The position numbers and the translations under genes are program-made. A stretch of 25,245 nucleotides of DNA from Candidatus Coproplasma sp. (lineage in GTDB: Bacteria; Bacillota; Clostridia; Christensenellales; Borkfalkiaceae): assembly GCA_051887795.1 (NCBI GenBank), contig JBJFAG010000010.1, forward strand, positions 1-25,245, in the 5' to 3' direction. Of this stretch, positions 3,746 through 23,218 are shown one piece after another. Within the stretch, counting starts at the first letter, position 1; every line of letters starts with the position of its first letter. The notes under the pieces were generated by a model. The model ran no database searches. It was not told where the DNA came from and saw nothing but the letters and a program-made list of their open reading frames with translations.

Positions 3746-5617
3746 ATGAAGAAAAGACTGATTGCAATTTTATTGTCGTTTTGCGCTCTTTTGGGTGCGG
3801 CGTTTGCTTTTGCGGGCTGTAAGAACGAGAAAACGAGGATAGAAATGTATCTTTGGGATAAGTCTATGACAAAGACGCTTACGCCCTGGTTAGAGGAGCA
3901 GTTCCCAGAATACGAGTTCAACTTTGTAGTAGGCTATAACTCTATGGATTACTACACCGACCTTGCCCAAAGGGGCGGGGATATGCCCGATATAATCACG
4001 TGCAGACGCTTTTCCATTAACGATGCGGCGCACCTTTCCGACCGACTTATGAACCTGAACAACACGGAAATAGTCGGCACCTTTTACAGCAGCTATATAG
4101 GCAACAACAGGGAGACGGACGGCGGCATACGTTGGCTGCCCATGTGCGCCGAGGTGGACGGCTATATTGCAAACCTGGATCTGTTTGAGGATAACGGTAT
4201 TAAGGTCCCCGAAAATTATGCAGAGTTCAAAGTGGCCTTAGCCGCCTTTGAGGAGAAGGGAATAAGGGGCTTTGCAGGTGATTGGGGCAACGACTACGCC
4301 TGCCTTGAATTGCTGCAGGGCAATTCCATTCCCCTTCTTATGAGCAGGGAAGGTAAGAGCTGGCGTATGAAGTACGAAAGCGAAACGGACGAAAACCCCG
4401 TGGGGCTTGACGAGGCGGTATGGCCGCAGGTCTTTGAAAGGTTTGAAAGCTATCTGAATGACGTCAGCTACAAAAAGGAAGATTACGGCAACAGCTCCCA
4501 ATCGTATGCGTTCCTCTCAGGACAGCTTGCGATAATGAGGGGTACGGCAACCGACTGCGCCGCAGCCAATGCGGAGGGCATGAACTGCGTTATGCTCCCC
4601 TACTTCGGAGAGACGGAGAGCGAAAATTGGGTGCTTACGTACCCCATGTGTCAGCTTGCAGTGGCAAAGCACGTCGGGGAGGACGCCGTCAGGAAGAAGG
4701 CCGTCATACGGGTGCTTAATAAGATCTTCAGCGAGGAAGGGCAGAGCAAGCTCTCTTCAGGCAGCTCGGTGCTTTCGTATAACAAGGATATAGACTTAGA
4801 GATGGGCAAACCCTTTGAGAGAATTTCGGACTGTGTAGAGAGCAACCGCCTCTATATGAGGCTTGCCTCTGAAGAGTTTTTCTCCATATCCAAAAGCGTA
4901 GTGAGAAAGATGTTAAACGGATACGTCGGCTACAACGGCAGTACGTACGGTGCGGTTGACGCATATGCTGATTTCAACGCTCAACTTACGGCAGAAAAGC
5001 AGCCCGCCGAAGAGGACGTTATAATCACTCAGGCAAACGCTTACTCCTTAGATTTCGGCAAACACGGTATCGAAGCGGCGTCGTCCGTCATGAACACTAT
5101 GCGCCGTGGCAGCGAATGTGAAATTGCGATAGGTTATTCCCCCATTGTAAGCGCTCCCGTATTTGCGGGGGACTACACTAAACAGCAGTTAACCTGGCTA
5201 TTGACGGCCAAGACTGCGGGATATACTGCCGAATACACGGGCGAAGAGATAATAAGCTATATGGACTGGCTTATCAACGTTAAAGAGGACGGCTCCAACC
5301 CCGTCCGCCACTTTAACATGCTGCCCGTAACGAGCGGTATGGAATATTCGGTTAAGGACAACGGTGGGGGAGAATACACCCTCCTGAACGTAAACGTAGG
5401 CGGTCAGCCCATTGAAGAGGACAGGGTATATAAGGTATTTCTTCTGGGTGACGACGGGTATATTACAGACGCCGTCTACTGCAATTGCCCCATGCCCGCA
5501 CAGCTAAAGGCTAAACGCACTGTATTGAGCGGAAAGAACGTAGATATTTTACTGGGCTGTTTAAACGTCACCTCTCAGCTTTTAGAAGCTGAAAGCTACG
5601 TTACGGTAACAAAATAA
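3746..5617 (+). CDS. Extracellular solute-binding lipoprotein (sugar-SBP-like) with C-terminal 5'-nucleotidase C-like domain
   Basis: Signal peptide MKKRLIAILL...FAFAG-C (lipobox). GGDMPDII and NLDLFEDNGIKVPENYAEF are typical of family 1 SBPs. The C-terminal ~200 aa follow the 5'-NT C pattern (M...EIAI...AGDYT..QL...YTGEEII...LPVTSGMEY...VGGQPIEEDRVYKV). Confidence 0.75.
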   Translation: MKKRLIAILLSFCALLGAAFAFAGCKNEKTRIEMYLWDKSMTKTLTPWLEEQFPEYEFNFVVGYNSMDYYTDLAQRGGDMPDIITCRRFSINDAAHLSDRLMNLNNTEIVGTFYSSYIGNNRETDGGIRWLPMCAEVDGYIANLDLFEDNGIKVPENYAEFKVALAAFEEKGIRGFAGDWGNDYACLELLQGNSIPLLMSREGKSWRMKYESETDENPVGLDEAVWPQVFERFESYLNDVSYKKEDYGNSSQSYAFLSGQLAIMRGTATDCAAANAEGMNCVMLPYFGETESENWVLTYPMCQLAVAKHVGEDAVRKKAVIRVLNKIFSEEGQSKLSSGSSVLSYNKDIDLEMGKPFERISDCVESNRLYMRLASEEFFSISKSVVRKMLNGYVGYNGSTYGAVDAYADFNAQLTAEKQPAEEDVIITQANAYSLDFGKHGIEAASSVMNTMRRGSECEIAIGYSPIVSAPVFAGDYTKQQLTWLLTAKTAGYTAEYTGEEIISYMDWLINVKEDGSNPVRHFNMLPVTSGMEYSVKDNGGGEYTLLNVNVGGQPIEEDRVYKVFLLGDDGYITDAVYCNCPMPAQLKAKRTVLSGKNVDILLGCLNVTSQLLEAESYVTVTK

Positions 5618-5641
5618 AAAATTAATTAAGGAGGGCGGTTT

Positions 5642-8560: not shown

Positions 8561-8612
8561 AATATAATCGAGCGGGGCAGAACGATACGCCCTTATCGTA
8601 AAGGTGTAAATT

Positions 8613-8975
8613 ATGAATATTGAAGAGTTTTACAAAAAGTTGGGCGGGGACTACAGCGAAGTTTCCGCACGTTTGCCTAGCCTTACCCTCGTTGAAAGGT
8701 TTATCGGTAAATTTTTGCAGGACAAGAGCTTTGAAGACCTTTCTGTAAGCATGAAAATCGGGGACAGAAAGGGTGCGTTCAGCGCCTCCCATACGCTTAA
8801 AGGCGTGTGTGCAAACCTCGGTTTCGGCACTCTGCGCTCCTCCTCTTCCAGGCTGTGTGAAGAGCTTCGGGGCGAGGGCGAAATCATTTCCGATACCGCA
8901 TACATCCTGATGAACGAGGTGGAAAGGGATTATTCGGTAGTCATTCAGACAATAAGCCAATATTTAAAAAAGTAA
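8613..8975 (+). CDS. Stand-alone histidine phosphotransfer (Hpt) protein
   Basis: 120-aa helical protein with AFSASHTLKGVCANLGF Hpt motif. Confidence 0.9.
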   Translation: MNIEEFYKKLGGDYSEVSARLPSLTLVERFIGKFLQDKSFEDLSVSMKIGDRKGAFSASHTLKGVCANLGFGTLRSSSSRLCEELRGEGEIISDTAYILMNEVERDYSVVIQTISQYLKK

Positions 8976-9018
8976 GTTTACATCAGAGAGATATATACCC
9001 CAAAGCAAGGTAAAACAT

Positions 9019-11598
9019 ATGAGACGTAAAAAGGAAATTTTAGTAGTTGACGATAATGAAATCAACCGTGAGATGCTTGCTGAAATACTCAAGGAGAAAT
9101 ACAGCGTATTGCAGGCAGAAAACGGCCGTATGGCGCTGGAGCTGTTAAAGGGTAAAGAGGGCATAGCGTTAATTTTACTTGACGTTATGATGCCCGTCAT
9201 GGACGGCTATACCTTTTTGGACAGGATAAAAGAGGATAAGGAGCTGTCGCTCATACCCGTGATAGTGCTGACCGAAGGCAACAGCGAGGAGGCGGAGGTT
9301 GCGGCACTTGCGCACGGCGCCACCGACTTCGTTCCCAAGCCCTACCGCCCTCAGGTTATTTTGCACCGTATCGAGAGCATAATAAATCTCAGAGAGACGG
9401 CCGCAATGGTTAACCAGCTCCGCTATGATAGGCTGACGGGCATCTATACGAAGGAGTACTTTTATCAAAAGGCTCTGGAAAAATTGCAGGAAAACCCCGA
9501 TAAAAATTACTGTATAGTCTGCTCCAACATTGAAAACTTCAAGCTGTTCAACGACGTCTACGGCGTGAATACGGGCGACGAGCTGTTAAAGGAGACGGCC
9601 GCTATTATGCGCAAGATGATGGGTACGAGCGGCGTTTGCGGAAGGTTTTCTGCAGACAGGTTTATCTGCCTTCAGGAATTTGAGCAGGAGGAAGAGGACA
9701 GGGCAAACTTCGGCAAGTTGAATATGTCCGTTTCATCCAACATGAAAAAGGTGGTTATGCGTTGGGGCATATACCACATAAGCGACCGCACCGTTCCCCT
9801 TGAACAGATGTGCGACAGGGCTATGCTTGCCGTAAACAGCATTAAAGGTACTTATAATCAATTCTTTGCCGTCTACGACGACGTCCTCCGTGATAAGCTC
9901 TTAAGGGAAAAGGCGATAACCGACGCTATGGAGGGGGCTTTATCGAGGGGTGAGTTCGTCGTATACTTCCAGCCCAAGTACAGCCTTACGGACAATTGTC
10001 TGGTAGGTGCGGAGGCGTTGGTACGCTGGGTACACCCCGTTCACGGCGTAATATCCCCGGGCGTATTTATTCCGCTGTTCGAAAAGAACGGGTTTATCTC
10101 CCGTCTGGATAAATACGTATGGGAACAGGTTTGCCTCAGGCTGAACGGTTGGAAGGAGAAGGGTTATCCCCTCTTACCCATATCCGTCAACGTCTCGAGG
10201 GCGGATATATACAGGCCTAACCTTGAAACCTTCTTTACCGGGCTTATTGAAAAGTACGGCGTGGACCCCTCCTATCTCCACCTTGAAATAACCGAAAGCG
10301 CCTATGCGGAAAATCAGGAGCAGATAATAACCACTGTTGACTGCTTAAGAAATCTCGGGTTCGATATCGAGATGGACGACTTCGGAAGCGGTTATTCCTC
10401 CCTTAGTATGTTAAGCCGAATGAAGCTGGACGAGTTGAAGTTGGATATGAAGTTCGTCCATAACGAGACGGCTAAACCCCTTGAACACAGCATACTGAAC
10501 GACGTTATCAATATGGCGCACAGGCTCAATTTAAAAGTCGTCGCCGAGGGCGTGGAGACGAGGGAGCAGATGCGCAGACTTCAGACGGTGGGCTGTGACT
10601 TTGTGCAGGGCTTCTTCCTTGCAAAGCCCATGCCCGTTGAGGACTTTGAAAAGCTGCTTTTAGTTCAGCGCAAAAGTACTGCCGCTCCCGGCAGGGACAC
10701 TCATTCCGCAGTGCCTGAAAAATACTCCGTAATTATCGCCGACGAGGACTTGAATTTCAGCGGAGAAGCGGGGCTTGCATTCAAGGACGAATACAACGTT
10801 ATTCAGACGGCGGACGCCGACAAGGTCATTGACGCCGTAAACACCAACGGCGAGGCCATAGGCGCAATCGTGCTGAGCATGACTTTGCCCGACGGCGGTG
10901 CGGCTAAGATCATGAAGTGTTTAAGAAGCGAGTCGGGCTATTGGCAGATACCCGTGCTGGCCACTATACCGAGCAGTTCGAGAATGCAATCGCTCCCCCT
11001 TGCTCTGGAGGCGGACGACTTTTTGTGTAAGCTCCATCCCGTTTTCGACCTGAGAAAGAAGGTTCAGCGTCTTGTAGACGAGGCGGTGACGCACAGGCGC
11101 GTAAACGCCCTTTTAAACGAGGCGCACCACGACTTTATGACGGGGCTTTTAAACCGCAGGGGACTTAACGCCGCAATGGAGCAGTTGAGAAAGGAACACG
11201 TCCCCGTTGCCCTCTGTATGTTCGATCTGGACAACCTTAAAAGGGTAAACGATACCTACGGACACGACGTGGGCGACAGAATGATTTCGTCTTTTTGCGA
11301 TCTGTTAAAGCGCAGTACCCGCAGCGACGACTACGTTTGCCGTTACGGCGGAGACGAATTTGTCGTCATCTTAAGAAAGATTGGCGAGCAGGACGCCCTG
11401 AAGAGGGCAAAAGAGATCTGCGAAAGAAGCAGGAAGATAGTGATCAACGAAAGCGTTACTCTTTCGTGTTCGGGCGGCGTGGTAACGTGCGGCGTCGACG
11501 AACCGCCCTCGCTGGAGCTTATCGAACGCGCTGACGAGGCGTTGTATAGCGCAAAGCGCAATAACAAAGGCAGCTGCAACATGTGGCAGAAGGGTTAA
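9019..11598 (+). CDS. c-di-GMP enzyme: REC - degenerate GGDEF - EAL - pseudo-REC - GGDEF
   Basis: REC with VVDD/LLDVMMP/KP; first GGDEF degenerate (SADRF, 9649-9663); EAL intact (EALVRW, EITES, DDFGSGYSS, EGVE, QG); second REC-like domain has Ser (IVLSMTLP) at the phospho-Asp; C-terminal RSDDYVCRYGGDEF with RxxD I-site. Confidence 0.92.
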   Translation: MRRKKEILVVDDNEINREMLAEILKEKYSVLQAENGRMALELLKGKEGIALILLDVMMPVMDGYTFLDRIKEDKELSLIPVIVLTEGNSEEAEVAALAHGATDFVPKPYRPQVILHRIESIINLRETAAMVNQLRYDRLTGIYTKEYFYQKALEKLQENPDKNYCIVCSNIENFKLFNDVYGVNTGDELLKETAAIMRKMMGTSGVCGRFSADRFICLQEFEQEEEDRANFGKLNMSVSSNMKKVVMRWGIYHISDRTVPLEQMCDRAMLAVNSIKGTYNQFFAVYDDVLRDKLLREKAITDAMEGALSRGEFVVYFQPKYSLTDNCLVGAEALVRWVHPVHGVISPGVFIPLFEKNGFISRLDKYVWEQVCLRLNGWKEKGYPLLPISVNVSRADIYRPNLETFFTGLIEKYGVDPSYLHLEITESAYAENQEQIITTVDCLRNLGFDIEMDDFGSGYSSLSMLSRMKLDELKLDMKFVHNETAKPLEHSILNDVINMAHRLNLKVVAEGVETREQMRRLQTVGCDFVQGFFLAKPMPVEDFEKLLLVQRKSTAAPGRDTHSAVPEKYSVIIADEDLNFSGEAGLAFKDEYNVIQTADADKVIDAVNTNGEAIGAIVLSMTLPDGGAAKIMKCLRSESGYWQIPVLATIPSSSRMQSLPLALEADDFLCKLHPVFDLRKKVQRLVDEAVTHRRVNALLNEAHHDFMTGLLNRRGLNAAMEQLRKEHVPVALCMFDLDNLKRVNDTYGHDVGDRMISSFCDLLKRSTRSDDYVCRYGGDEFVVILRKIGEQDALKRAKEICERSRKIVINESVTLSCSGGVVTCGVDEPPSLELIERADEALYSAKRNNKGSCNMWQKG

Positions 11599-11712: not shown

Positions 11713-11741
11713 AAACCGTGAAGAAATTTCACGGTTTTTTT
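11713..11741 (+). terminator. Intrinsic terminator of signalling operon
   Basis: AAACCGTGAA-gaaat-TTCACGGTTT followed by TTTT. Confidence 0.85.
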
Positions 11742-11786
11742 ATAAAAAAGGTTAACTTCTATTTCATTTAACTATATAGAAAAGAT

Positions 11787-11826
11787 AATACCGCAACGGC
11801 TTTGGTTGAGCCAATGCGGTATTTTT
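11787..11826. terminator. Terminator hairpin at 3' end of the minus-strand lipid operon
   Basis: AATACCGCA...GGCT/AGCC...TGCGGTATT(TTT) imperfect stem, 9 nt past the hydrolase stop. Confidence 0.65.
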
Positions 11827-11834
11827 AAACAACT

Positions 11835-12896
11835 TTATAAATTTTCATCAAATAATTTAACTATGCTGTCCATCAGCTCGCCGTTGACCTGGCTGTACAA
11901 GGCGTGGTCTACGGTTGAGTAATAGTCGGCCTTTTCCTCATAAGTCAGCTTTCTGCCCTTTTGCTTTTCCAAGGCGAGCAAGCCGTCCTTAACCTGCAAT
12001 TGGTATTCCTCTGCCTCCGCCGAATGCCATATTCCCGTATGGCTGCCCTGCAACCCTTCGCCCACGTAATAGGTGACAAAAGGGTTGGTTATCTCGTCCT
12101 TGTGGGCAATAATCGACTGCTTTTCAAAGTTTATGGTCTTGTCCGTCTTACCGTGTGCCACAAGCACGGGTACGTTTGATTGGTTAATCCCCTTAATTGC
12201 GTTGCATTTGGTGTAGTCGTCGAAGATGAGCTTCTGGTACATATTGAAGAAGGGTTCGGGGATTCTGCCGATTACGCCTGCGTACTCCTCCGCCTTTTCC
12301 GTCATAAGCATACAGGCGTCGTGCATTGCGGCAATCGAAGCGCAGGCCTTAACGCCGTCGCAGAGGGAGAGGACGGACGTTGCGGCGTAACCGCCCCAGC
12401 TATGCCCTATGAGGAAGAGGGGCATATCAGACAGCGACTGCACGCTTTTAATGTGTTTAATCGTCCCCTCCAAGTCTATCAGGGACTGGCACATACCGAC
12501 AAGGTCGCTGCCCTCCGATTCGTAAGTTCCCTGACAGTTGTAGGAAAAGACGCTGTACCCCGCATTGACCATATGCATGATAATGGGCAGGTAATCGTCG
12601 CCGCCCGACTTCATTCCGTGGACCATTACGACTAACCCCTTGTTTTCCTCCGAGGCATAGTAGTAGCCCTTTAGCTTTACGTCGTTAACCGTATAGTAGA
12701 ACTCGGACCGCAGCAGTCTGTCCTGAACGCGTTCATAGCAGTATTCGCCTGGCGTCAGGGCGTAATCGGGGCGTTCAACCTTGGGGAACAGGGCCTCGTA
12801 GGCAATAATAGTTGATGCGGCAGTCGCAACGTTAACGCCCAGTGCAGCCGCAAGCAGCCCTATCAGCACTTTCTTTTTCTTTGGACTAATACGCAT
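11835..12896 (-). CDS. Membrane-anchored/secreted alpha/beta hydrolase (lipase/esterase-like)
   Basis: Basic plus hydrophobic N-terminus (KKKKVLIGLLAAALGV), VVMVHG oxyanion region, GHSWGG nucleophile elbow, HGKTD acid, and a downstream His (SHTG). Confidence 0.85.
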   Translation of the reverse strand: MRISPKKKKVLIGLLAAALGVNVATAASTIIAYEALFPKVERPDYALTPGEYCYERVQDRLLRSEFYYTVNDVKLKGYYYASEENKGLVVMVHGMKSGGDDYLPIIMHMVNAGYSVFSYNCQGTYESEGSDLVGMCQSLIDLEGTIKHIKSVQSLSDMPLFLIGHSWGGYAATSVLSLCDGVKACASIAAMHDACMLMTEKAEEYAGVIGRIPEPFFNMYQKLIFDDYTKCNAIKGINQSNVPVLVAHGKTDKTINFEKQSIIAHKDEITNPFVTYYVGEGLQGSHTGIWHSAEAEEYQLQVKDGLLALEKQKGRKLTYEEKADYYSTVDHALYSQVNGELMDSIVKLFDENL

Positions 12897-12933
12897 TTCA
12901 TACTCCTATTATGTCTTAAAAGATATGGTTTTA

Positions 12934-13929
12934 TTAGAACTCGCAGTCGACGTTTTGGTGTATTCTTAAAAGCTTTAAATCCATTGAGGCAACCGAGAGT
13001 ATATAGCCTCCGTCAGCGTTTAAGCGCATACTGCGGGTGGTAAACTCCTCCGTCTCTATGGAGTCGGGGGAAAAGGCTCTGCCGCCCTGCATTTTAAAAA
13101 TGCTCTCCTTCTGAGTCCATTTCTCTGCAAGGTAAACGGCTTTGTCGGCCTGGGCGGCGTACTTTTCCTCTTCGCTTCGCGTCAGGAATTTATGCCTTAT
13201 ACTCTCCAGCCTGTCTGTTATCCTTTCAACGTCCACGCCGACCGCCCTGCGGCTTACGCAGACTGCAACTATTTCTCCGCAGTGGGAGAGGGAGAAGCTG
13301 CAGCCGTCCGTAACCCATCTGCCGTTCTCCTCCTTGGCAAAATCCGTCTTTTTAGCGCTTAAGCCGAAGGTATGGAACAGGGCGTATTCAAGCAGCTTCC
13401 AGGCGCAATACTTTTCCCGCTGAACCCTTTCGTTGGTACAGCCTTCAATCTCCTGCCAGCGCTGCTTGCAGGATAACTTTTTCATCTTCAGCCCGTCGGG
13501 AATTTTGGCCGTGTACACGTCAACAATGGGCAGGTTATGGAACATAGCCCGCACGGCGTCTGCCTGGGTACACTTCTTCTCACCCATAACACATTCGTAG
13601 GCGAAGTGTTCGCAGTTGTTATACAGCATATTATAGCCCTTTTCCCCGATGCGGGAGCGGGCCTTCCGCACTGTGATTTCACGGGGGATACGGGCCTTTA
13701 ACTCCCTTTTATCCAGCACCGCCGTCTCTAAAAAACCGCCCTGTAAAAATCCGTCCACGTCAGAGGCGCAGACCTCCACGTCGCAGTCCTTTACCGACAG
13801 TCTGGCGGAAGGGGCAAGCCCGAACTGAATAACTTCCCCGTCGCTGACATATACCCCGTAATGATAGATGTTGCCTATCTTAACGCGGATCATATCCCCG
13901 CTTTCAGGCTGAATCATCTGCCAGTTCAT
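12934..13929 (-). CDS. LRAT/PLAAT-like (permuted NlpC/P60) acyltransferase fused to Sfp-type 4'-phosphopantetheinyl transferase
   Basis: N-term: GDMI...YHYGVYV (H23), EVIQF (Q35), YNMLYNNCEHFA (C106). C-term: FSLSHCG, VGVDVE, WTQKESIFK PPTase motifs. One uninterrupted frame. Confidence 0.85.
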   Translation of the reverse strand: MNWQMIQPESGDMIRVKIGNIYHYGVYVSDGEVIQFGLAPSARLSVKDCDVEVCASDVDGFLQGGFLETAVLDKRELKARIPREITVRKARSRIGEKGYNMLYNNCEHFAYECVMGEKKCTQADAVRAMFHNLPIVDVYTAKIPDGLKMKKLSCKQRWQEIEGCTNERVQREKYCAWKLLEYALFHTFGLSAKKTDFAKEENGRWVTDGCSFSLSHCGEIVAVCVSRRAVGVDVERITDRLESIRHKFLTRSEEEKYAAQADKAVYLAEKWTQKESIFKMQGGRAFSPDSIETEEFTTRSMRLNADGGYILSVASMDLKLLRIHQNVDCEF

Positions 13930-14183
13930 TGCTCTACGTGCGCCTCTATATAGTCGAGTACGTCGCCGACGCAGCCAAAATCGCTGAAGCTTACGTTGTC
14001 AAAGCGGATGTTGAAAAACTCCTCGATAGCGATTACAACGTAGATAATGCCCACCGAATTTAACCCGAGGTCGGTAGTTAAGTTGGATTGTTCCGTACAG
14101 TTATCTAAATTTACGGAATCTCCGAGCGCCAACGCTAAAATTTCCTTTAATTTTTCGGCTATTTCCAATCTCTTACTTTGCAT
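13926..14183 (-). CDS. Acyl carrier protein (phosphopantetheine attachment domain)
   Basis: 85-aa acidic protein, DLGLNSVG (Ser attachment site, N instead of usual D), AIEEFFNIRF helix II pattern; ATGA overlap with LRAT-PPTase. Confidence 0.85.
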   Translation of the reverse strand: MQSKRLEIAEKLKEILALALGDSVNLDNCTEQSNLTTDLGLNSVGIIYVVIAIEEFFNIRFDNVSFSDFGCVGDVLDYIEAHVEQ

Positions 14184-15678
14184 TTTGGTTTCTCACAATT
14201 TTTAAACTTGCTGAACGGATGAAGTCGTTTTCGCGAATGACAATCTTGTTTATCCTCTGTTCGGAGGGGAGGGTTGCGTTAACCTTGTTTATCTCTTCAC
14301 GGAGATAGCTTTCGGGGTCTGCAATCTGCATGGAGGCGAGCAGCGCCTTTCTGGGATAGACCTCCAGCACGAGGCCCGAACGCCCCGGTTCGTGGTTTTC
14401 GTAGATAAGACAATCCTGAATGGCGTCAATCTCGCCGAACTTAGCCTCTATTTCCGCAGGGGAAATGTTTTCGCCCGTAGGCAGAACGATAATCTCCTTC
14501 TTTCTTCCCACTATGTATAAGTAGCCCTCTTCGTCAAGGCGGACGAGGTCGCCCGTCTTAAACCAGCCGTCCTCATAGGCGCTGGCGTTTTCTTCGGGTT
14601 CGCCTACGTAGCAGTCCATCATGTTTATGCCCTTAAGCCAAAGCTCTCCGTCCACGATTTTATAGTCCATACCGTCGTAGATAAAGCCGACGGAAGCGGG
14701 TTTTTTCAGCGCTTCGGGGTTACCGCTTACAAGGTTAGCGCTCTCAGTCAAGCCGTAACCGGGCAACAGCGCAATGCCCAGCTTGTCGTATTCGTGTACG
14801 AGGTAGGGGGCAACCGTTGCGGCGCCGCAGATAATCGTCTTAATGTCGGGTCCGAGCATGTTTCTTTTGAACTGCTTGGAGAGGTTGAGCGCCATTTCTG
14901 CAAGAGCGGGTACCACTACGATAATGGTGGGTTTGAATACCGCTATGTCACGGAACATATCCTTATTGTTACGGCAGATGAAAATTGCACTGCCCGTGTA
15001 AAGGCTGGTTAAGAGGTTACGCACCAACCCGAACACGTGGGTTAAGGGCAGAACCAGCATATATCTCTGACCGAACACGTCCTTAATTCCGTAGCAGCCG
15101 TTCTTCACGCCGCGCATAATCGCCTGGTTGGAGAGGAGTGCGCCCTTGCTCTTACCCGTCGTGCCGCCCGTAAAGATTACGGTGCAGGGGGCCTTGCCCT
15201 CAACATTCTGGCAGGGGGTGGAGTCGTCTCCCCTGACGCTATCCTCAAACAGCTTGAAGTCAGGGCGCCTTTGCTGTAAGAACTTAACCTTCTCTGCAAG
15301 GGCGGGGCTGTAGATTAAAGCGTTCAGCGCATATTTCATAGAGCAGCCGAAAACAGTCGTCTCGTCGAGCTGCGGGGGGATTAAAACGGCAACCGCACCG
15401 ATGGTGGTAACCGCTAAATAGGCCGTTACAAAGGCAGCGCTGTTGGGGATATAAATGCCAACGTTATCCCCGCTCTTTACGCCTTGAGACAGCAGGAAGC
15501 TGCGCATCTTTGCGGCCTCATCTTCAAGCTGAGCGTAGGTAATCGAGCGGTCGTTATCCACAACCGCAACGTCGTCCGCATATGCCTCAACGCAGTGTAA
15601 CCACATCTCGCTTACGCTTGCATAGTCGACTATTTTAGCATAGGTATCCGCATCGGTATACTTTTCAAATACGTTCAT
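14173..15678 (-). CDS. Long-chain acyl-AMP ligase (ANL superfamily; acyl-CoA/acyl-ACP synthetase-like)
   Basis: FTGGTTGKSKG P-loop, LPLTHVFG, GYGLTE, WFKTGD, GRKKEII..GENISPAEIE, terminal SLKIVR Lys. ATG15678 has an AAGGTGA SD; the ORF track uses GTG15687. Confidence 0.9.
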   Translation of the reverse strand: MNVFEKYTDADTYAKIVDYASVSEMWLHCVEAYADDVAVVDNDRSITYAQLEDEAAKMRSFLLSQGVKSGDNVGIYIPNSAAFVTAYLAVTTIGAVAVLIPPQLDETTVFGCSMKYALNALIYSPALAEKVKFLQQRRPDFKLFEDSVRGDDSTPCQNVEGKAPCTVIFTGGTTGKSKGALLSNQAIMRGVKNGCYGIKDVFGQRYMLVLPLTHVFGLVRNLLTSLYTGSAIFICRNNKDMFRDIAVFKPTIIVVVPALAEMALNLSKQFKRNMLGPDIKTIICGAATVAPYLVHEYDKLGIALLPGYGLTESANLVSGNPEALKKPASVGFIYDGMDYKIVDGELWLKGINMMDCYVGEPEENASAYEDGWFKTGDLVRLDEEGYLYIVGRKKEIIVLPTGENISPAEIEAKFGEIDAIQDCLIYENHEPGRSGLVLEVYPRKALLASMQIADPESYLREEINKVNATLPSEQRINKIVIRENDFIRSASLKIVRNQNAK

Positions 15679-15683
15679 GTTTT

Positions 15684-16349
15684 TCACCTTTTATCCTTTA
15701 CATATTTATCATAGCGAGCTTTAAGCTCTTCTTCTCTTTGCTGTAATTGCAGGTTAATCGTCTCAACCTCTTTCATTGAAGGCAGCCTGCCGTCAAAGTT
15801 GATTTCAACGGGGTCGCCGACAACTGCCACGCGGCGCTGCCACCACTTGTTAATCTTGTTTATGTAGACGGGAACTATGGGCTTATTTGCCCTGCATGCC
15901 ATAAGGATAGCCCCTGCCTTAAAGGGCATAACGCCCTCGGCCTTTTCGTTGACCTGCCCTTCGGGGAATATAACCACGGCTTTGTTTTCCTGCAATCTTT
16001 CGCACACTGTATAAAAGGTACTCATGTTGAAATTATCCTTATCTACCATAATGCAGTGCATCTGGTTGAAAAAGAACCTCTTCAATTTAGTGTTATACAG
16101 GTTTTTTGTGGCTATACAGTTTAACCTACGCCGCCAGAATACGCAGTGGACAACTATGGGGTCGGTAAAGCCAACGTGGTTTACCGCCGCTAAAAATCCG
16201 CCTTTGATTTTAGGGCGTTTGTTTAAATAGATAATCTTCGGGCGCATCCAGATCAATGCGGGGATTGCACCCGTAACCTTTACGAAGTCGTAGATAAAAT
16301 TACACGTTCTTCTTTTCTTTTTCGTTTTGCATTTGTCTTTGGAGCTCAT
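15684..16349 (-). CDS. plsC: Lysophospholipid acyltransferase (PlsC family) 2
   Basis: NHVGFTD (HX4D), FPEG, FKAGA, PIVPV motifs. Confidence 0.88.
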   Translation of the reverse strand: MSSKDKCKTKKKRRTCNFIYDFVKVTGAIPALIWMRPKIIYLNKRPKIKGGFLAAVNHVGFTDPIVVHCVFWRRRLNCIATKNLYNTKLKRFFFNQMHCIMVDKDNFNMSTFYTVCERLQENKAVVIFPEGQVNEKAEGVMPFKAGAILMACRANKPIVPVYINKINKWWQRRVAVVGDPVEINFDGRLPSMKEVETINLQLQQREEELKARYDKYVKDKR

Positions 16350-16959
16350 CTTTTAAATCTATCACCTTTTCTCTCAATCTCTTACAAATTGCGTCCAGGT
16401 TCTCCTTTTCGCTCAACTTTTCGTCATACCATTCCCGCACGTCGATGGGGGTGCCTATGATTACTCGCGCCCGCTTATTGTTGAAGTACTGCCCGTCGGT
16501 GTACACGGGAATAACGGGGGCGCCGCTCTGCAGGGCCATATATGCCACGCTGGGTTTAAATTCCAGCGGCTTCTCCTCGTCGGGGAGCGCCAGGCGGGAT
16601 TCGGGGTAAATTTCCACCACGCCGCCCTTGTCAAGTATTTTTTCCGCCTTTGACAGGAAGGAAAAATCGTGGGTGTTGCGGTTGACCTTTATACCGCCAA
16701 GCAGCTTTAAAAGCAGCGTCATGATAAAGTTCTTGCTATACAGCACCTCCGCCATAAGGCAACGCAGCGTCCTGGTCCAGAACACGAACATCATAACGGC
16801 AAAATCCATTATGGATTGGTGGTTGGGCATGACTATTGCCTTACCTTTTATTCTACGTCCCTGTACCTTTTTATCTTCATAGTACACCTTGGTACGGAAG
16901 ATGAAAAGGGGGGCGGGGAAGCCTGTAATTTTAAAAAACCAATGTGATAAAGAGTACAT
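16300..16959 (-). CDS. plsC: Lysophospholipid acyltransferase (PlsC family) 1
   Basis: NHQSIMD (HX4D), IYPESR (block III variant), APVIPV; TGATG overlap with MFS stop. Confidence 0.88.
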   Translation of the reverse strand: MYSLSHWFFKITGFPAPLFIFRTKVYYEDKKVQGRRIKGKAIVMPNHQSIMDFAVMMFVFWTRTLRCLMAEVLYSKNFIMTLLLKLLGGIKVNRNTHDFSFLSKAEKILDKGGVVEIYPESRLALPDEEKPLEFKPSVAYMALQSGAPVIPVYTDGQYFNNKRARVIIGTPIDVREWYDEKLSEKENLDAICKRLREKVIDLKDELQRQMQNEKEKKNV

Positions 16960-18932
16960 CAGCCGTTCGCCTCTTCAATGGGGGTATGTTCTGCCAATAC
17001 CGTCTGGCTTTCGGCATTTACGGTATACAGCTTATTTATATAGTGCTGTAAAAGTGCAAGGGCAACTACGTTTAAGGGCAGAAGGGGCAGGATTACCGCA
17101 AAGGCTATCATCACAATGCGTGCGGTGCCAAGCTTTTTGCCCTGCAATACGCCGACGCCGTCCGCCTTTGCCTTTTCAGCGATAATGCCCGAAAGTTTTA
17201 ATATGGTTGCAACGGAGAAGAAGGGGACGAAGCAGGAGGCGAGCCACCATGCCCAGGATTTGAGCTTTGCACCCGTAACTTCCTTTATGGATTTAAATAG
17301 GAAGCCCAGCCAGATAAATCCGAAGATAAAGCCCGAGAGGATTGACAGGCCTACCTGTACGAAGATTATTTCACCCTTTTCTTCCTTTTCATGGAATTTT
17401 TCGTCCCTTTCTATCTGCGATAAATCAATGTCGGGGTGAAGCTTTTTCAGCTCTTTTGCGACGTTTTCAGGCGTGTAATCTCTCGGCATTTTCCTTGCGA
17501 GAATTGCGCCTAAAATACAGGTAAACGCCACGATGAAGGGGACTAAAATAGTGCCGAGGTTAAACACCTGGGTGTTGGGCGCGCCGAACGCCTCCGCCGC
17601 AACGTCTATTGCAGAGACGACTTCGCCGTCCACAATCTTACTCGTCGCCCACTGCACGCCGGGAACGCCTTTGCAGATGAACAGGTTTTTAATCAGCTCA
17701 TAGATGAGCGAACCTGAAATTGCGCTTGCAATGGAGGTGCAGACCGCATTGCCTGCAAAATACATTGCGGAGTGGTTTTTGTGTGTAAGCTTTTCCTCCA
17801 CGCTGGAGATCTGGGCGGTGATATGATAGGGCATCATGAAGAATGCGCCGATTGCCCAGCTGCCGCAGAAACCGCCCAGACAGCCGAGGACGTATTGCAG
17901 TACCTTGTTGTCGGGGCCTACCACGAAAATCGAGCCGAAGAAGAAGTTTAAAATTGCAATGGCAAAAGCAATCAGGCAGGTCTGGTAGGTAAACCTTATT
18001 CCCTTTTTGGCCTTAAGCTTGTTGAACAGGTACAGCATAATGGGTACGGGTGCGAAAGCGCAGGTGTTGAGAATTGCCATCTCCATGCCGTTCATGCCCA
18101 TACCGCCCAGGATAAGCACGTTCATACTTACAAGGAACATCTGCAGCCCGAAGTAGGTACAGCAGTTTACAAGCTCCCACCGCATAAACACCTTGTTCCT
18201 GAAGGTGAGGCTTAAGCTCTCCTTTAAGGTAACCTTTTCAGGCTTAGCTCCCTGATTTTCGGGGTAATTATACTTGGCGCCCTCTTTAATCATGAACAGG
18301 GGAATTACAAGCGTAAGCATTAAGGGGGAGCAATAATATATAAACTCGTTGATATGCAGCTTTGCACCCGATAAAATTACGGGGACAAGCGCATATACCA
18401 CGCAGTAGGAGATGGTGTCGAAAAAGGCCTTATAGCCCGAAACACGCAGACGCTGCGGCTCGTCCGAACAGGTGGTGGACAGCGAACCGTAGAAGGAGAT
18501 GGTACCCATCGTGTAGGTGGCGAAGAACACTAACGCCCAGAAGATAATCCATATCGTATTGACAAGCTGATTTTCAACCCCGCCAATGGGCAGCCAGCAC
18601 ATTACGTAGGAGAGCGTCATGGGCAGAAGGCATGCTAAAATAGTAGGTCTGCGCCTGCCCCATTTTGTCGACAGCGTATCGGTTACGTGTGCAAAGGGTA
18701 TATCGATAATACCGTCGAACGCCTTGGCAACGGCGTACAGCGCGGGGAATACGGCAGGCAGTATAAAGCAAGCGCCGCTTGCAAACTTCTGAAACTCCCC
18801 TGAGTTTACAAGTGCGGAGGGATTGATTGCGTCCGTGAAGTATGCTCCCATCAGGACCATTAAAAAGTTGGGCCCGAAGCAGGAGAAGGCAAACACAAAC
18901 TCCTTCCACTTTTTGTCTAGTGATTTAACCAT
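16959..18932 (-). CDS. MFS transporter, GPH/MelB (MFS_2) family, with C-terminal membrane extension (DUF4234-like)
   Basis: FDGIIDIPFAHVTD and TKWGRRRP are characteristic of GPH symporters. About 12 TM core, then a charged linker and a ~120-aa hydrophobic extension ending ALLQHYINKL. Confidence 0.8.
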   Translation of the reverse strand: MVKSLDKKWKEFVFAFSCFGPNFLMVLMGAYFTDAINPSALVNSGEFQKFASGACFILPAVFPALYAVAKAFDGIIDIPFAHVTDTLSTKWGRRRPTILACLLPMTLSYVMCWLPIGGVENQLVNTIWIIFWALVFFATYTMGTISFYGSLSTTCSDEPQRLRVSGYKAFFDTISYCVVYALVPVILSGAKLHINEFIYYCSPLMLTLVIPLFMIKEGAKYNYPENQGAKPEKVTLKESLSLTFRNKVFMRWELVNCCTYFGLQMFLVSMNVLILGGMGMNGMEMAILNTCAFAPVPIMLYLFNKLKAKKGIRFTYQTCLIAFAIAILNFFFGSIFVVGPDNKVLQYVLGCLGGFCGSWAIGAFFMMPYHITAQISSVEEKLTHKNHSAMYFAGNAVCTSIASAISGSLIYELIKNLFICKGVPGVQWATSKIVDGEVVSAIDVAAEAFGAPNTQVFNLGTILVPFIVAFTCILGAILARKMPRDYTPENVAKELKKLHPDIDLSQIERDEKFHEKEEKGEIIFVQVGLSILSGFIFGFIWLGFLFKSIKEVTGAKLKSWAWWLASCFVPFFSVATILKLSGIIAEKAKADGVGVLQGKKLGTARIVMIAFAVILPLLPLNVVALALLQHYINKLYTVNAESQTVLAEHTPIEEANG

Positions 18933-18964
18933 TTTTTATATTCTCTCTTTAAATTATTCTCTGG

Positions 18965-20899
18965 TCAGAGCGTAGCTTGCTTTTTTATTACGTCGTAAAA
19001 ATTCTGCGGGGTAAACAGCTTTTCGTCTTCGGGGAAGGAGACTTCGACGTGCAGTTCGGATTTTATGGTGTCAAGCAGTACGAAATAGTCTAAACTGCTT
19101 CCTCCTAAATCGGTAAAGAAATCGGACTGCATTCCCACGTCTTTTTCGTCGATCTGCAGCGCCGTAGCAAAGCACTGCCTGATCTTTTCCTCCAATGCGG
19201 ATAAAACGCCCTCCACGTAGCCGTTTGCGTTGTCTATATCGATTAGGTTAAAACCGCCTGCGGAGTATCTTTTTGCAACCTTTTTTCTGCTGAGTTTAAA
19301 ATCTCCCGGGCCTAAAAGCTCGTCTGCGGTTATGGCAAGCTGCGTAACCACGTCCCTTAAGTTGTTTTCTTTAAGTTTTTCGGCTAACTGTCCGTAAACT
19401 TTTTGAAGCTTTTGGGCAGAGAAGCAATTTTCAATACTTGCAAGCAGGGTGGGCGTTCCGCTTTGGTCTGCAAACAGGCACAGGTTTTTTATGTCGGGTA
19501 CGAATAAACTTGCCTCTATCAGTTCGGGGTTGAGGTTCTCGCCGTTTTTGCAGATAATCAGATCGTCCTTTCTCCCCAGGTTATAGTACCTGCCCTTGCG
19601 TACGCAGACGAGGTCCTTGGTTTCAAACCAGCTGTCAAAGTCGGTAATCAGCTCCTCTTTTCCGTAGACAATGCGGGAGGCCATAGCCCTGCTTCTTACC
19701 AGCAGCTCGCCGTCCTTGGACACGCTGTACTGAGTGGTAGAGAAGGGTGCGCCTATGGAGCCCAAGTTCCTCACTCTGGCGCTCGACGAAGTCTCGACGG
19801 AGGTAATGCCCACTTCTGTCATGCCGAAGCCGTTGGCCATATGGTAACCTATGCCGTTGAAAAAGCGCAATACCTCGCCCGATACGGCGCTGCCCCCCGT
19901 AATTAAAAACTTAATGCTGTCCCCGAATATATTCTCCCTCACCTCTTTGAAGAGGGGTTTTGCAAGCAGCTGGCCGAACCTGCCCGTAGCGTTTACAAAG
20001 TTCAGCGCTCTGCAGAATTTGTTATAGGTCTTTTTGCCCCTCTCTTTAATGGTGCGCATGGCCTTTTTATGTACCGTGTTCCATACAAGGGGTACGGCAA
20101 ATATATGGGTAACCTTATGCTTTTTAATGGTGTTCACCAGCGTCTGGGGGTTCATATCTTTTAAAAACACAAGCGTACGGGAGAAGAAGGTAAACCAAAG
20201 GTATACGGCCGCAAACCCGAAGATATGGTAGAAGGGCATGGCTGCAAGCAGCTTTAATTCCCCCTCGTAATGCTCCTTGAAACGGGGACAGTTTTTAATT
20301 ATCTCCGCACTGCTGCAAATCTGGTGATAGAAGTTCTCCGCAGTATATGCGCACAGCTTTACCGAGCCAGAGGTCCCCGACGACATGAAAAGCACTTCGT
20401 CGCCCCAGACGTCGGGAGTATATTCCCTTCCGCAATCCTTCTCAAAGATTTTATCGGCTGAAAAGGTAGGCACGCCGAAGCTCTGCCCGTCGGATACTAC
20501 TGCGGCAACGCCGTGTTCGGTAAGCGCCTGTTCCAGGACGTTTACGGGCAGACGGGCGTTTAATAAAAGAGGACGGTAACCGCACATAAGAACAGACCAG
20601 AAGGTCTGCAGCCATGCAAGGGAGTTCTGCATATGTAAGCCGATCAGCGAACCCTTTGCAATACCTTTAAAGGCGTCGCTGAAAGCGGTTGCCACCGTCT
20701 TAATCTTATTATCACACTCCCCGTAGGTCACTTTTTTTATGCGATAGCCGTCCGAATATTCTGCAATGACGTTTTCTCTTTCGGAGAACATAAAGTAATA
20801 CAGAGCTTTAAAATCCCTTTCCGACGATTTATAGGCATTGAGCTTGTGTTCGATATACTCATCTACGTCGGAAAAACCGCCAAGGTTGGTTAATTTCAT
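18965..20899 (-). CDS. Acyl-AMP ligase with fused C-terminal carrier domain (A-T didomain)
   Basis: FMSSGTSGSVK P-loop, MPFYHIFG, GFGMTE, WFETKD, GRKDDLI..GENLNPELIE; C-terminal DFFTDLGGSSLD carrier Ser motif; GGAGAG SD. Confidence 0.88.
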   Translation of the reverse strand: MKLTNLGGFSDVDEYIEHKLNAYKSSERDFKALYYFMFSERENVIAEYSDGYRIKKVTYGECDNKIKTVATAFSDAFKGIAKGSLIGLHMQNSLAWLQTFWSVLMCGYRPLLLNARLPVNVLEQALTEHGVAAVVSDGQSFGVPTFSADKIFEKDCGREYTPDVWGDEVLFMSSGTSGSVKLCAYTAENFYHQICSSAEIIKNCPRFKEHYEGELKLLAAMPFYHIFGFAAVYLWFTFFSRTLVFLKDMNPQTLVNTIKKHKVTHIFAVPLVWNTVHKKAMRTIKERGKKTYNKFCRALNFVNATGRFGQLLAKPLFKEVRENIFGDSIKFLITGGSAVSGEVLRFFNGIGYHMANGFGMTEVGITSVETSSSARVRNLGSIGAPFSTTQYSVSKDGELLVRSRAMASRIVYGKEELITDFDSWFETKDLVCVRKGRYYNLGRKDDLIICKNGENLNPELIEASLFVPDIKNLCLFADQSGTPTLLASIENCFSAQKLQKVYGQLAEKLKENNLRDVVTQLAITADELLGPGDFKLSRKKVAKRYSAGGFNLIDIDNANGYVEGVLSALEEKIRQCFATALQIDEKDVGMQSDFFTDLGGSSLDYFVLLDTIKSELHVEVSFPEDEKLFTPQNFYDVIKKQATL

Positions 20900-20926: not shown

Positions 20927-20974
20927 ATTTCAATGGGGTTGAAATATTTACGTAAATATATTACAAAATATTAC
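20927..20974. promoter_or_regulatory. Candidate operator region in leader of lipid operon
   Basis: IR ATTTCAA-N5-TTGAAAT (20927-20945), perfect 16-bp palindrome ATATTTACGTAAATAT (20944-20959), direct repeats ATATTAC at 20958 and 20968. Confidence 0.45.
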
Positions 20975-20988
20975 GCCAAATCTTTTTT

Positions 20989-21017
20989 ATTTTACTATAT
21001 TCTGCATTTTTCGTCAA
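20989..21017 (-). promoter_or_regulatory. Sigma-A promoter of lipid operon
   Basis: Minus strand TTGACG(21017-21012)-17 nt-TAAAAT(20994-20989). Confidence 0.65.
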
Positions 21018-21187: not shown

Positions 21188-21850
21188 ATGCAGATTATAG
21201 ATATTCAGACGTGGAAGAGAAGAGTTCCCTACCTGAACTTTATCAATTACACCAACCCCATATTCTCGCTTTCGACACGGTTGGACGTAACCGCGCTGTA
21301 CGATAGCTGCAAGAAAAGGGGTACGTCGTTCTTTACCGACTTCATGTTCATAGCCGTCACCTGCCTTAACTCTGTTGAGGAGTTCCGCCTTCGTATAAAG
21401 GACGGAAACGTCGTGCTTTACGACAGTATAAGTCCTAGCTATATCGTCATGTCGGACGACGGCGTAATAGTCACGTGCCGCAGTGCAAGCTGTGCCGACT
21501 ATGCAAAGTTTTACGAAAACGCCCGCCGTGATGCGGAGCTGGCAAGGACCAACAAAAAGACCAAGGAGTTTAACGACGGTTCAAACGACGTCTACTATAT
21601 CTCGTGTATGCCCTGGACGGATTTCACCTCGGTGACAAACCCGTACGATTTGAAGGACGCCGAAGCGAGCAGTATACCCCGCCTGACCTGGGGCAAGTAC
21701 ACCGAGGAAAACGGCAGGAAGAGGTTGACAATGGATATAGCCGCACATCATGCGCTTATCGACGGCGAACCCATCTGCAGGGCATTCAACAAAATTCAGT
21801 CCGCCATGGACGATCCCGACAAATTCTTTGCAGAACATACCGCACAATAA
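21188..21850 (+). CDS. cat: Chloramphenicol acetyltransferase (type A CAT) family O-acetyltransferase
   Basis: 220 aa; IDIQTWKRR start, ISCMPWTDFTS, IPRLTWGKY, HHALIDG catalytic motif; GGAGG SD. Substrate is not provable from sequence. Confidence 0.8.
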   Translation: MQIIDIQTWKRRVPYLNFINYTNPIFSLSTRLDVTALYDSCKKRGTSFFTDFMFIAVTCLNSVEEFRLRIKDGNVVLYDSISPSYIVMSDDGVIVTCRSASCADYAKFYENARRDAELARTNKKTKEFNDGSNDVYYISCMPWTDFTSVTNPYDLKDAEASSIPRLTWGKYTEENGRKRLTMDIAAHHALIDGEPICRAFNKIQSAMDDPDKFFAEHTAQ

Positions 21851-21874: not shown

Positions 21875-23218
21875 ATGAAGGATAAAATTTTTATAGCCTG
21901 GAGCGGCTCTAACCTTATTGCTTCAAAGATCAAATCCATACTTGAAACAAAAAACTACAAGTGTACCATAGGCGGTAACTCCGACAACAGCTCTACCTAC
22001 TCTTCGGTAGGCGATACGGTAATCCAGCAGATAAAAAACTGCAATCAGGCGATTGTAATCTTCCAGAACAGGGCGGACGGCAAGGTGAGCAACAACCTGT
22101 TCTTTGAGCTGGGGTACGTGCTTTCGATGTACGGCCAGCAGAAGATACACTGCGTAAAGAGGGCGGACGAGGAAGTAGTGCTGCCTTCCGACTTCGATAA
22201 TTCCTTCGTTGAGCCCATAGTATGCGACAATGACGAGCAATTTGTAGAGGGTATTTTAAAGTACTTCTTTGCCCGTCAGAAGATGTCTATAAATCAGAAC
22301 AAGATGCTGCTGATTAACAACCGCTATCTTATGCACGACTATATTCAAAGACATTTTTCGGAGCAGGGGTCTAAATGTTCGGACTACGAATTGGCGCAAT
22401 ATATCCTGTTCTATATGCAGGCCGCGCAGATGTTCGGCGACGAGGCAAAGGTGTGCAGGGAGCTTAAGCAGTTCAAGGACGACTATCATTCGTATTTTTC
22501 GGACGAGCTGGCAATAGCCGTCGACATTGGCATATCCTACTTTGAATTTTCACAGAACATTCTCATGCGGCCGGACGGGGAATTTTACGTTGAACGCAGC
22601 GTGTTCCGCCGTTTCAGGGACAGCTATATCAAATGCAGGGAAGATTTAGGCGAGGACGACACGGGTATGTTCAGCGAGTGGGCCTACACCTTCATCTCTC
22701 AAAGGCTCAATTACGCCTATATGCTGTTTACCAACAATCCCGAACTGACTGAAGAAAAGTTGGTTAAGAATATCGAACTGAGTAAGGAATGGGGCTTTAC
22801 CGCTTTGAAGGACGTGGAGAGGTTGGAGAGCTATGCGTCGATAAAGGATAACAACGACCATAAGGGCATACTCTCGCTGTTCAGGGCATACCTATACAGA
22901 AATCTGTTCGTCTGCAGCAGAAAACTGCACGACGAAGAGGGGGAGCTGGACTGGCTTATAAAGAGCAAGAAGGAGCGGACCTCGCTTAAAAACAACTTTG
23001 AAATAGGCAGCATAGACTCCCAGCTATACGATAATTTCGCCATGGAGTACTACCTTATCCTTGTGGAATATCTGCACTATGCGGACAGGCTCGGTCTGGA
23101 CGAGGACGACGTTGACGACTACAAGGACGAGATAAAGTGCTATATCGATAAATTCACAAAGCAGGTCAATCACAGCAAATATATCGACCGTATAGCCTCG
23201 CTTTTGAACAAACTATAA
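21875..23218 (+). CDS. TIR-domain protein (CAP12/Pycsar-type nucleotide-binding TIR) with ~300-aa helical C-terminal domain
   Basis: KIFIAWSG beta-A, CNQAIVIF beta-C, SNNLFFELGY with putative catalytic E78, and LPSDF, matching the NVxFElG...lPSD pattern of this TIR clade; GAGG SD. Confidence 0.72.
   Translation: MKDKIFIAWSGSNLIASKIKSILETKNYKCTIGGNSDNSSTYSSVGDTVIQQIKNCNQAIVIFQNRADGKVSNNLFFELGYVLSMYGQQKIHCVKRADEEVVLPSDFDNSFVEPIVCDNDEQFVEGILKYFFARQKMSINQNKMLLINNRYLMHDYIQRHFSEQGSKCSDYELAQYILFYMQAAQMFGDEAKVCRELKQFKDDYHSYFSDELAIAVDIGISYFEFSQNILMRPDGEFYVERSVFRRFRDSYIKCREDLGEDDTGMFSEWAYTFISQRLNYAYMLFTNNPELTEEKLVKNIELSKEWGFTALKDVERLESYASIKDNNDHKGILSLFRAYLYRNLFVCSRKLHDEEGELDWLIKSKKERTSLKNNFEIGSIDSQLYDNFAMEYYLILVEYLHYADRLGLDEDDVDDYKDEIKCYIDKFTKQVNHSKYIDRIASLLNKL

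Follow-up and report, generated by a model that had tools for sequence, protein, structure and literature searches.

An eight-gene operon of gut Clostridia with a proposed role in lipid salvage and re-acylation

Why should a gut bacterium which appears unable to make fatty acids keep two adenylate-forming ligases, two acyl carriers and two acyltransferases together in one operon, apart from its housekeeping lipid genes? The question is raised by eight genes, here called g1 to g8, in a DNA stretch of 25,245 nucleotides from Candidatus Coproplasma sp. (GenBank assembly GCA_051887795.1, contig JBJFAG010000010.1, positions 1 to 25,245). This whole stretch, hereafter the window, is a contig of a 1.86-Mb metagenome-assembled genome (MAG) which is 82% complete. 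Based upon the domains of the encoded proteins, the recurrence of their gene order and the physiology of the hosts, we propose with moderate confidence that the operon serves gut Clostridia unable to synthesise fatty acids as an accessory means of salvaging and re-acylating lipids.

The eight open reading frames (ORFs) are co-oriented on the minus strand and lie head to tail from 20899 to 11835. The leading gene, g1 (18965-20899), specifies a 644-amino acid (aa) ligase fused to a carrier (AMP-binding and PP-binding domains). It is followed by g2 (16959-18932), which encodes an MFS_2 (GPH-type) carrier of 657 aa, and by the genes for two PlsC-type acyltransferases possessing PF01553, namely g3 (PlsC-a; 16300-16959, 219 aa) and g4 (PlsC-b; 15684-16349, 221 aa). 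Downstream of these are g5 (14173-15687) for a second adenylate-forming ligase with an AMP-binding domain (ligase 2, 504 aa); g6 (13926-14183) for a divergent stand-alone acyl carrier protein (ACP) of 85 aa with a PP-binding domain; g7 (12934-13929), in which a PLAAT/LRAT-like domain is fused to an Sfp-type phosphopantetheinyl transferase (PPTase; LRAT and ACPS domains); and g8 (11835-12896) for an anchored alpha/beta serine hydrolase of 353 aa. Genes g2 and g3 share 1 nt, and overlaps of 50, 4, 11 and 4 nt occur at the g3/g4, g4/g5, g5/g6 and g6/g7 junctions, respectively; only g1/g2 and g7/g8 are separated, by 32 and 37 nt. The ORF list together with the Pfam and NCBIfam scans agrees with a preliminary description of this DNA, which had placed an eight-gene operon with these domains at these positions, with overlap at five of its seven junctions. 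That description had also reported the lack of ketosynthase, condensation and reductase domains, and the two scans identified none of these, nor any thioesterase, in the eight proteins; the extended relatives are likewise devoid of all four.

Conserved synteny had been proposed as a check on the operon, and the gene order indeed recurs in dozens of species. The count was based upon 59 species-level loci in which at least 7.2 kb of sequence lies upstream of the LRAT-PPTase gene. That upstream region contains a PlsC gene in all 59 loci, an ACP gene in 56, the ligase-carrier gene in 53 and the gene for ligase 2 in 51, while an MFS_2 carrier occurs near the LRAT-PPTase gene in 47 (upstream in 32, downstream in 15). 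This recurrence, also seen with independent gene calls, is far beyond chance, and the operon is a real, conserved single unit. The protein collection contains 624 homologues of the fusion itself, of which those with a name all come from Clostridia MAGs; at least 553 species-representative genomes encode it, almost all of them MAGs of uncultured gut or rumen Clostridia. The labels of those which carry it include Oscillospiraceae, Acutalibacteraceae, Ruminococcus, Christensenellaceae, Scatosoma and Faecousia. Its distribution is patchy: it is lacking in three complete genomes of the same genus, and a full-length fusion was found in only three of the 121 genomes sampled from the order, that of the window among them. 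Full-text literature searches for the LRAT-PPTase fusion or for the gene set returned no description of either, in keeping with the earlier remark that no system with this set of genes had been described.

Four layouts recur, the first being that of the window. The second is longer: it has no MFS gene between g1 and g3, and g7 is followed by genes for an anchored hydrolase, a DegV/FakB protein, a 450-aa MFS_2 carrier, FakA, more hydrolases and a deacetylase-like protein. The third layout is without ligase 2, and the fourth, which is minimal, consists of PlsC, ligase, ACP and the LRAT-PPTase fusion only. FakA, FakB/DegV and further anchored hydrolases are part of the same gene string in approximately 25 loci. 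In several relatives PlsC-b and ligase 2 form one protein of about 620-724 aa, with the domain order of Escherichia coli Aas.

A separate observation concerns 37 related loci. Downstream of the operon these have between one and six tandem genes for small membrane proteins of approximately 150-200 aa, which belong to no Pfam family. The N-terminal part of these proteins is a zinc ribbon (CxxCG...CxxC), and they also contain a variable linker, hydrophobic segments and the motif KPIP.L.LGI. Examples are found at L002:12153-12623, L005:11067-12176 and L011:12053-13644 and in L031; the window operon is without them.

Each operon protein was aligned with 21-61 homologues taken from related loci. In g1 the AMP-binding domain (PF00501) occupies residues 52-404 [2e-38] and the carrier domain (PF00550) residues 571-622. 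Of the general motifs of the ANL superfamily the P-loop (SSGT..K), GYGM.E, GR.DDL and GEN.NP are kept in 59 homologues, as is the carrier serine, S602. Its top matches in NCBIfam and the PDB are o-succinylbenzoate-CoA (MenE-type) ligases, all weak, and the solved structures closest to it, MenE and FadD-like ligases, are only distant. The second ligase, g5, possesses PF00501 at 205 bits, with all core ANL motifs kept in 53 homologues; its top NCBIfam model is a long-chain fatty-acid CoA ligase subfamily at 213 bits, below the cut-off of 476, and feruloyl-CoA synthetase and oxalate-CoA ligase are among its leading PDB matches. The P-loop, the hinge and the A10-type lysine are kept in the alignments of both ligases.

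The free carrier g6 contains PF00550 (30.9 bits) with an invariant phosphopantetheine serine (D.G..S). It scores 34.5 bits against TIGR00517 (canonical AcpP), below the cut-off of 70.45, whereas the housekeeping ACP of the same genome reaches 80.7 bits.

Both PlsC-type proteins carry the catalytic HX4D motif of their family. PF01553 was matched at 67 bits by g3, with NHxxxxD and PE.R kept in 55 homologues, and at 77.8 bits by g4, with NHxxxxDP and FPEG kept in 53 homologues. Their matches to Aas-type NCBIfam models were considered as a sign of kinship with Aas. This was rejected, since the housekeeping PlsC of the genome gives the same pattern: it scores 55 bits against PRK08633, and g3 and g4 score 43-60 bits.

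The transporter g2 is a member of MFS_2 (PF13347, 110 bits against a cut-off of 27) and lies well below the cut-off of the GPH cation symporter model (TIGR00792, 51.6 bits against 231). A sequence search of the PDB gave no match, and a search of the ESM Atlas with the MFS core returned generic MFS_2 clusters only. NCBIfam likewise showed no match between g2 and the LplT portion of models for LplT-PlsC-AAS fusions (PRK08633, PRK06814); g2 is therefore not an orthologue of LplT and is at most an analogue. By hydropathy it consists of an ordinary MFS core and a C-terminal extension of approximately 230 aa with four predicted membrane segments, in which the motif FVQ.GL..LSG.IFGFIW is kept in 33 long forms. 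The extension (residues about 430-657, window positions 16959-17650) is present in the MFS carriers inside the operon; the MFS_2 copies beside FakA in the longer operons are approximately 450 aa long and have no such four-segment module. Homology of the extension to the small zinc-ribbon membrane proteins was examined and rejected (hhalign probability 8%).

In g7 a PLAAT/LRAT-like Cys-His domain (PF04970, 66 bits against a cut-off of 24.3) occupies residues 1-130 and the Sfp-type PPTase (PF01648) residues 136-331, approximately. In 21 homologues H23, Q35, NNC106EHF, G231xD233, W271xxK274E275 and K279 show no variation and E235 almost none; the PPTase motifs GxD..E and WxxKE..K are thus both present. 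The AlphaFold model (pLDDT 89.6) was compared with solved structures using Foldseek, which matched it to Sfp [4mrt, 1e-11, TM 0.72] over 222 columns and the whole length of Sfp, and matched its first 130 residues to human PLAAT2/3 [about 4e-7, TM 0.76-0.80]. A profile search of the PDB agrees, returning Sfp [4e-13] and, across the whole catalytic domain, PLAAT2/3/4. No hydrophobic membrane segment is predicted in g7; in place of the C-terminal anchor of PLAAT proteins there is the PPTase.

The position of g7, translationally coupled to the ACP gene, suggests that its substrate is carrier-bound. We infer that the LRAT domain transfers acyl groups between lipid and a carrier thiol, or else removes wrong acyl groups from the carriers. 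A complex prediction from alignments for residues 1-135 with the ACP gave no answer (score 0.04). One might go further and suggest, as a rather improbable idea, that the PLAAT-like half is a phospholipid:carrier-protein transacylase, in which Cys106 would move an acyl group from an imported phospholipid or lysolipid to the phosphopantetheine thiol of the private ACP. For this, both halves of g7 would have to bind one and the same carrier, a possible reason for their fusion. Were this so, fatty-acid-auxotrophic gut Clostridia could harvest acyl groups from intact host or dietary lipids without ATP, and g7 would be the first PLAAT/LRAT enzyme shown to act on a carrier protein, as well as a new entry route from exogenous lipid to bacterial membranes.

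The last protein, g8, possesses PF12146 and PF00561 domains and an N-terminal hydrophobic anchor at residues 9-32; its GHS.G motif, the Asp of G..D and a C-terminal His are kept in 37 homologues. Because a Lys-rich N-terminus precedes the single anchor, the positive-inside rule predicts that the catalytic domain lies outside the cell. An N-terminal hydrophobic segment is present in 67 of 72 operon-linked hydrolases. The g8-type hydrolase is itself variable among relatives, being often present and in one lineage replaced by a metallophosphoesterase. A second kind of hydrolase, of 305-315 aa, occurs in the longer operons (L081:11011-11949 and 15980-16927, with equivalents in L045, L065 and L071) and begins with a hydrophobic stretch followed by Arg and Lys. 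This charge pattern is opposite to that of g8, and these enzymes may therefore face the cytoplasm, with the g8-type facing outward.

The hosts of the operon lack type II fatty acid synthesis (FASII). Neither a FabF/FabB family protein nor FabZ was matched in the window's genome, an 82% complete MAG. A clear FabF was found in one of 36 other operon-bearing genomes and FabZ in one of 37, the two never occurring together in one genome. By comparison, FabF was found in 49 (40%) of 121 genomes sampled from the same order, and in 44 of the 106 with a completeness of at least 90%; since the genomes are related, many of the MAGs are incomplete and the 36 were picked for having the operon, this contrast is a suggestive one rather than the outcome of a statistical test. 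PlsX and FakA are each present in 34 of 37 operon-bearing genomes, FakA usually as two to three paralogues, and the hosts thus seem to be auxotrophic for fatty acids, with the FakAB-PlsX-PlsY-PlsC route intact. As a group in their own right, these small-genome Clostridia (G000, the window's genome, and 36 related ones) look like fatty-acid auxotrophs with expanded sets of fatty acid kinases. The window's genome keeps a canonical ACP, PlsX, two PlsY and a housekeeping PlsC, the latter in a cmk-plsC-ispH cluster. The operon is therefore accessory and not the housekeeping pathway, and the notion that it constitutes the only phosphatidic acid pathway of the cell was rejected on the same grounds.

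On the salvage reading the PPTase half of g7 would prime the g1 carrier domain and the free ACP g6, both of them private to the operon. The two ligases would then activate scavenged fatty acids with ATP and place them as thioesters on these carriers, from which g3 and g4 would pass the acyl groups on to glycerolipids serving as acceptors, most probably lysolipids or other partly acylated glycerol backbones. Such acceptors might be freed from dietary or host lipid by the outward-facing g8 and brought to the inner face of the membrane by g2. Formally g4, g5 and g6 may be regarded as a split Aas-like unit, and g1, g2 and g3 as another unit, whose carrier is built in. An acyl-cysteine would form on the PLAAT-like half of g7, whether this half shuttles acyl groups between lipids and the carrier thiol or clears misloaded carriers. 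Salvage of outside lipid is supported by the linkage of FakA, FakB and hydrolases in approximately 25 loci and by the near-restriction of the operon to genomes without FASII. The latter gives independent support to the scavenging direction which had been put forward in the preliminary description.

Several points weigh against the salvage reading. The hosts already have the full FakAB-PlsX-PlsY-PlsC route and no clear need for a second, ATP-costly one, and many FASII-lacking relatives manage without the operon. Both ligases fall below every curated NCBIfam cut-off, the best models for g1 being of the MenE type, and neither closely resembles any ligase whose specificity is known. The acyltransferases match the Aas-type models no better than a housekeeping PlsC does and are without specific Aas kinship. 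The transporter stands outside the LplT family and has no solved relative by sequence, so that import is not told from export or flipping. The existence of variants without ligase 2, or without the whole first unit and the MFS carrier, means that the two-unit scheme is not obligatory. Lastly, the operon-bearing MAGs are related, so that the FabF contrast is not made up of independent observations, and absence from an incomplete MAG is no proof.

What else might such an operon make? It could be a cassette that makes a specialised lipid, either multiply acylated or N-acylated, with the MFS carrier serving to flip or export the product; we regard this as unlikely. Two carrier-bound acyl groups would be transferred by the two PlsC enzymes and a third by the PLAAT-like domain, to yield for example a triacylated glycerolipid, a lipid resembling acyl-phosphatidylglycerol or N-acyl-phosphatidylethanolamine, or a lipid signal. 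The operon does have the logic of a self-contained pathway, with a PPTase of its own, a pair of private carriers and, in the two PlsC proteins and the LRAT domain, three domains for acyl transfer; with phosphatidic acid being made by a separate housekeeping route, it may make something else. PLAAT enzymes are able to N-acylate phosphatidylethanolamine, and g7 matches them in fold and triad; the patchy, accessory-like distribution is, moreover, typical of specialised products. The operon, however, contains no enzyme for a head group and none that activates an amino acid or a sugar, its recurrent partners (FakA, FakB and anchored hydrolases) have functions in uptake and salvage, and a ligase or a whole unit is lost in variants. 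Near-confinement to genomes without fatty acid synthesis also fits salvage better than a specialised product.

The same auxotrophy of the hosts is in accord with a further reading, in our view an improbable one, in which the operon would lead all the way from glycerol-3-phosphate to phosphatidic acid by a second route, independent of FakAB, PlsX and PlsY. One PlsC would acylate glycerol-3-phosphate and the other lysophosphatidic acid, each served by a ligase and carrier of its own, so that particular classes of exogenous fatty acid could be placed at sn-1 and sn-2, with the MFS carrier importing the backbone or the fatty acid. The symmetrical layout, with two triads of ligase, carrier and PlsC, argues for this, as does a glycerol-3-phosphate dehydrogenase gene directly upstream of the operon in L081; this neighbour, however, was seen in that one locus only. 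A precedent for a dedicated auxiliary ACP for exogenous fatty acids is Enterococcus faecalis AcpB (PMC6509188). Variants with a single PlsC, ligase and ACP, on the other hand, could not by themselves make phosphatidic acid from glycerol-3-phosphate, the genome already has two copies of PlsY, and the LRAT domain, the transporter and the outward-facing hydrolase are left without a role. It is most improbable, finally, that the ligases activate non-lipid acids (aromatic, short-chain or dicarboxylic) for esterification onto a small molecule or an envelope polymer, in the manner of carrier-dependent D-alanylation. The o-succinylbenzoate-CoA ligases which head the matches of g1, the high position of feruloyl-CoA synthetase and oxalate-CoA ligase in the PDB matches of g5, and the failure of either ligase to reach a curated fatty-acid ligase cut-off all point that way, but none of these matches is strong and all are of a kind common throughout the ANL superfamily. 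The acyl donors of PlsC-family enzymes are long-chain ones, FakA and FakB, as recurrent neighbours, act on fatty acids, and the association with missing FASII again points to fatty acids. Salvage and re-acylation thus remain the reading that we prefer.

As for signals, a promoter had been claimed at 21017-20989, and a consensus scan did locate there, upstream of g1 on the minus strand, the promoter-like site TTGACG-17 nt-TAAAAT (20989-21017), a consensus match only, with agreement at 10 of 12 positions. Since such sites are abundant in this AT-rich DNA (22 found against 10.8 expected), it is plausible, and not proven, that this is the promoter of the operon. Between it and the start codon of g1 lies a perfect 16-bp palindrome, ATATTTAC/GTAAATAT (20944-20959), which is 100% complementary and has no spacer; from its sequence and position it is a candidate operator, possibly for a lipid-responsive repressor. 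The terminator which had been described after the operon was also recovered. An imperfect hairpin with ACCGCA..TGCGGT arms and a T-rich tail (11781-11820, minus strand) was read directly 15 nt past the stop codon of g8; it is not among the terminators listed by a strict scan. A clean two-way terminator hairpin of 10-11 pairs, with T-runs on both strands, follows at 11713-11737, between g8 and a convergent gene for a REC-EAL-GGDEF protein.

The genes flanking the operon are unrelated to it. Transcribed divergently from it are genes for a CAT-family acetyltransferase (21188-21850) and for a CAP12/Pycsar-type TIR domain protein with approximately 300 unassigned residues (21875-23218). Converging on the operon terminator is a phosphorelay and c-di-GMP set (3746-11598), which comprises a lipoprotein-like protein, in which a 5'-nucleotidase C domain is weakly recognisable, a hybrid histidine kinase possessing two receiver domains, and the REC-EAL-GGDEF protein.

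How gut Clostridia of this kind build membranes from dietary and host lipid is little understood, and the matter bears on their resistance to cultivation and on competition for lipid. The operon offers a concrete, testable ligase and private-carrier route in Gram-positive-type bacteria, and a bacterial relative of the human PLAAT/LRAT enzymes gains a defined genomic context beside a carrier protein. New here is the observation that the hosts of the operon are without FASII.

In Gram-positive bacteria fatty acids are described as being usually activated by FakAB, and ligase-based routes as those of Gram-negative bacteria (PMC10146087); a ligase-and-carrier route in Clostridia is therefore unusual. 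The FakAB-PlsX-PlsY-PlsC pathway has the same purpose as that proposed for the operon, that is, to bring outside fatty acids into glycerolipids (PMC10146087). It proceeds through a kinase and an acyl-phosphate, whereas the operon would employ adenylate-forming ligases and carriers; the hosts have both. Enterococcus faecalis resembles them in having a second, dedicated ACP (PMC6509188).

The mammalian PLAAT1-5 (HRASLS) and LRAT enzymes (PF04970) share the fold of the first domain of g7 [TM 0.76-0.80 to 4dpz, 4fa0 and 7zom], in which the His and the Cys of NCEHF are invariant. The third position of the triad is Gln35 in g7 in place of His, and where the mammalian PLAATs have a C-terminal membrane anchor g7 carries a soluble Sfp-type PPTase.

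In gene organisation the nearest system is that of Chlamydia trachomatis, in which the adjacent CT775 (LpaT, a lysophospholipid acyltransferase) and CT776 (AasC, an acyl-ACP synthetase) form a split Aas that assimilates host fatty acids (PMC5693948). The pair uses the general ACP of the cell and is without a dedicated carrier, PPTase, MFS protein, hydrolase or LRAT domain; according to that literature Chlamydia retains FASII, unlike the hosts of the operon.

In E. coli LplT is reported to flip lysophospholipids inward, and Aas to ligate free fatty acid to bound ACP and re-acylate the lysolipid (PMC13170283). Like LplT/Aas and the fused LplT-PlsC-AAS proteins (PRK08633, PRK06814, PRK08043), the operon unites a PlsC-type enzyme, a putatively carrier-dependent ligase and an MFS protein. 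It differs in that its transporter is of the MFS_2/GPH type, its genes are separate and present in two sets, and its carriers are private, one being fused to a ligase and the other a divergent ACP. It also adds a PPTase, a PLAAT-like domain and an anchored hydrolase, and its hosts are Gram-positive-type Clostridia. The suggestion that it might be a Gram-positive counterpart of Aas/LplT holds in part. The putative acyl-ACP synthetase is joined to the acyltransferase as in Aas, given that g5 overlaps g4 and that in some relatives a single protein combines PlsC-b and ligase 2 as Aas does; g2, however, is not of the LplT type and the likeness of the PlsC proteins is generic. We describe the operon as a probable Aas-like lipid re-acylation system in doubled form, which has carriers and a PPTase of its own, a PLAAT-like enzyme and a transporter other than LplT.

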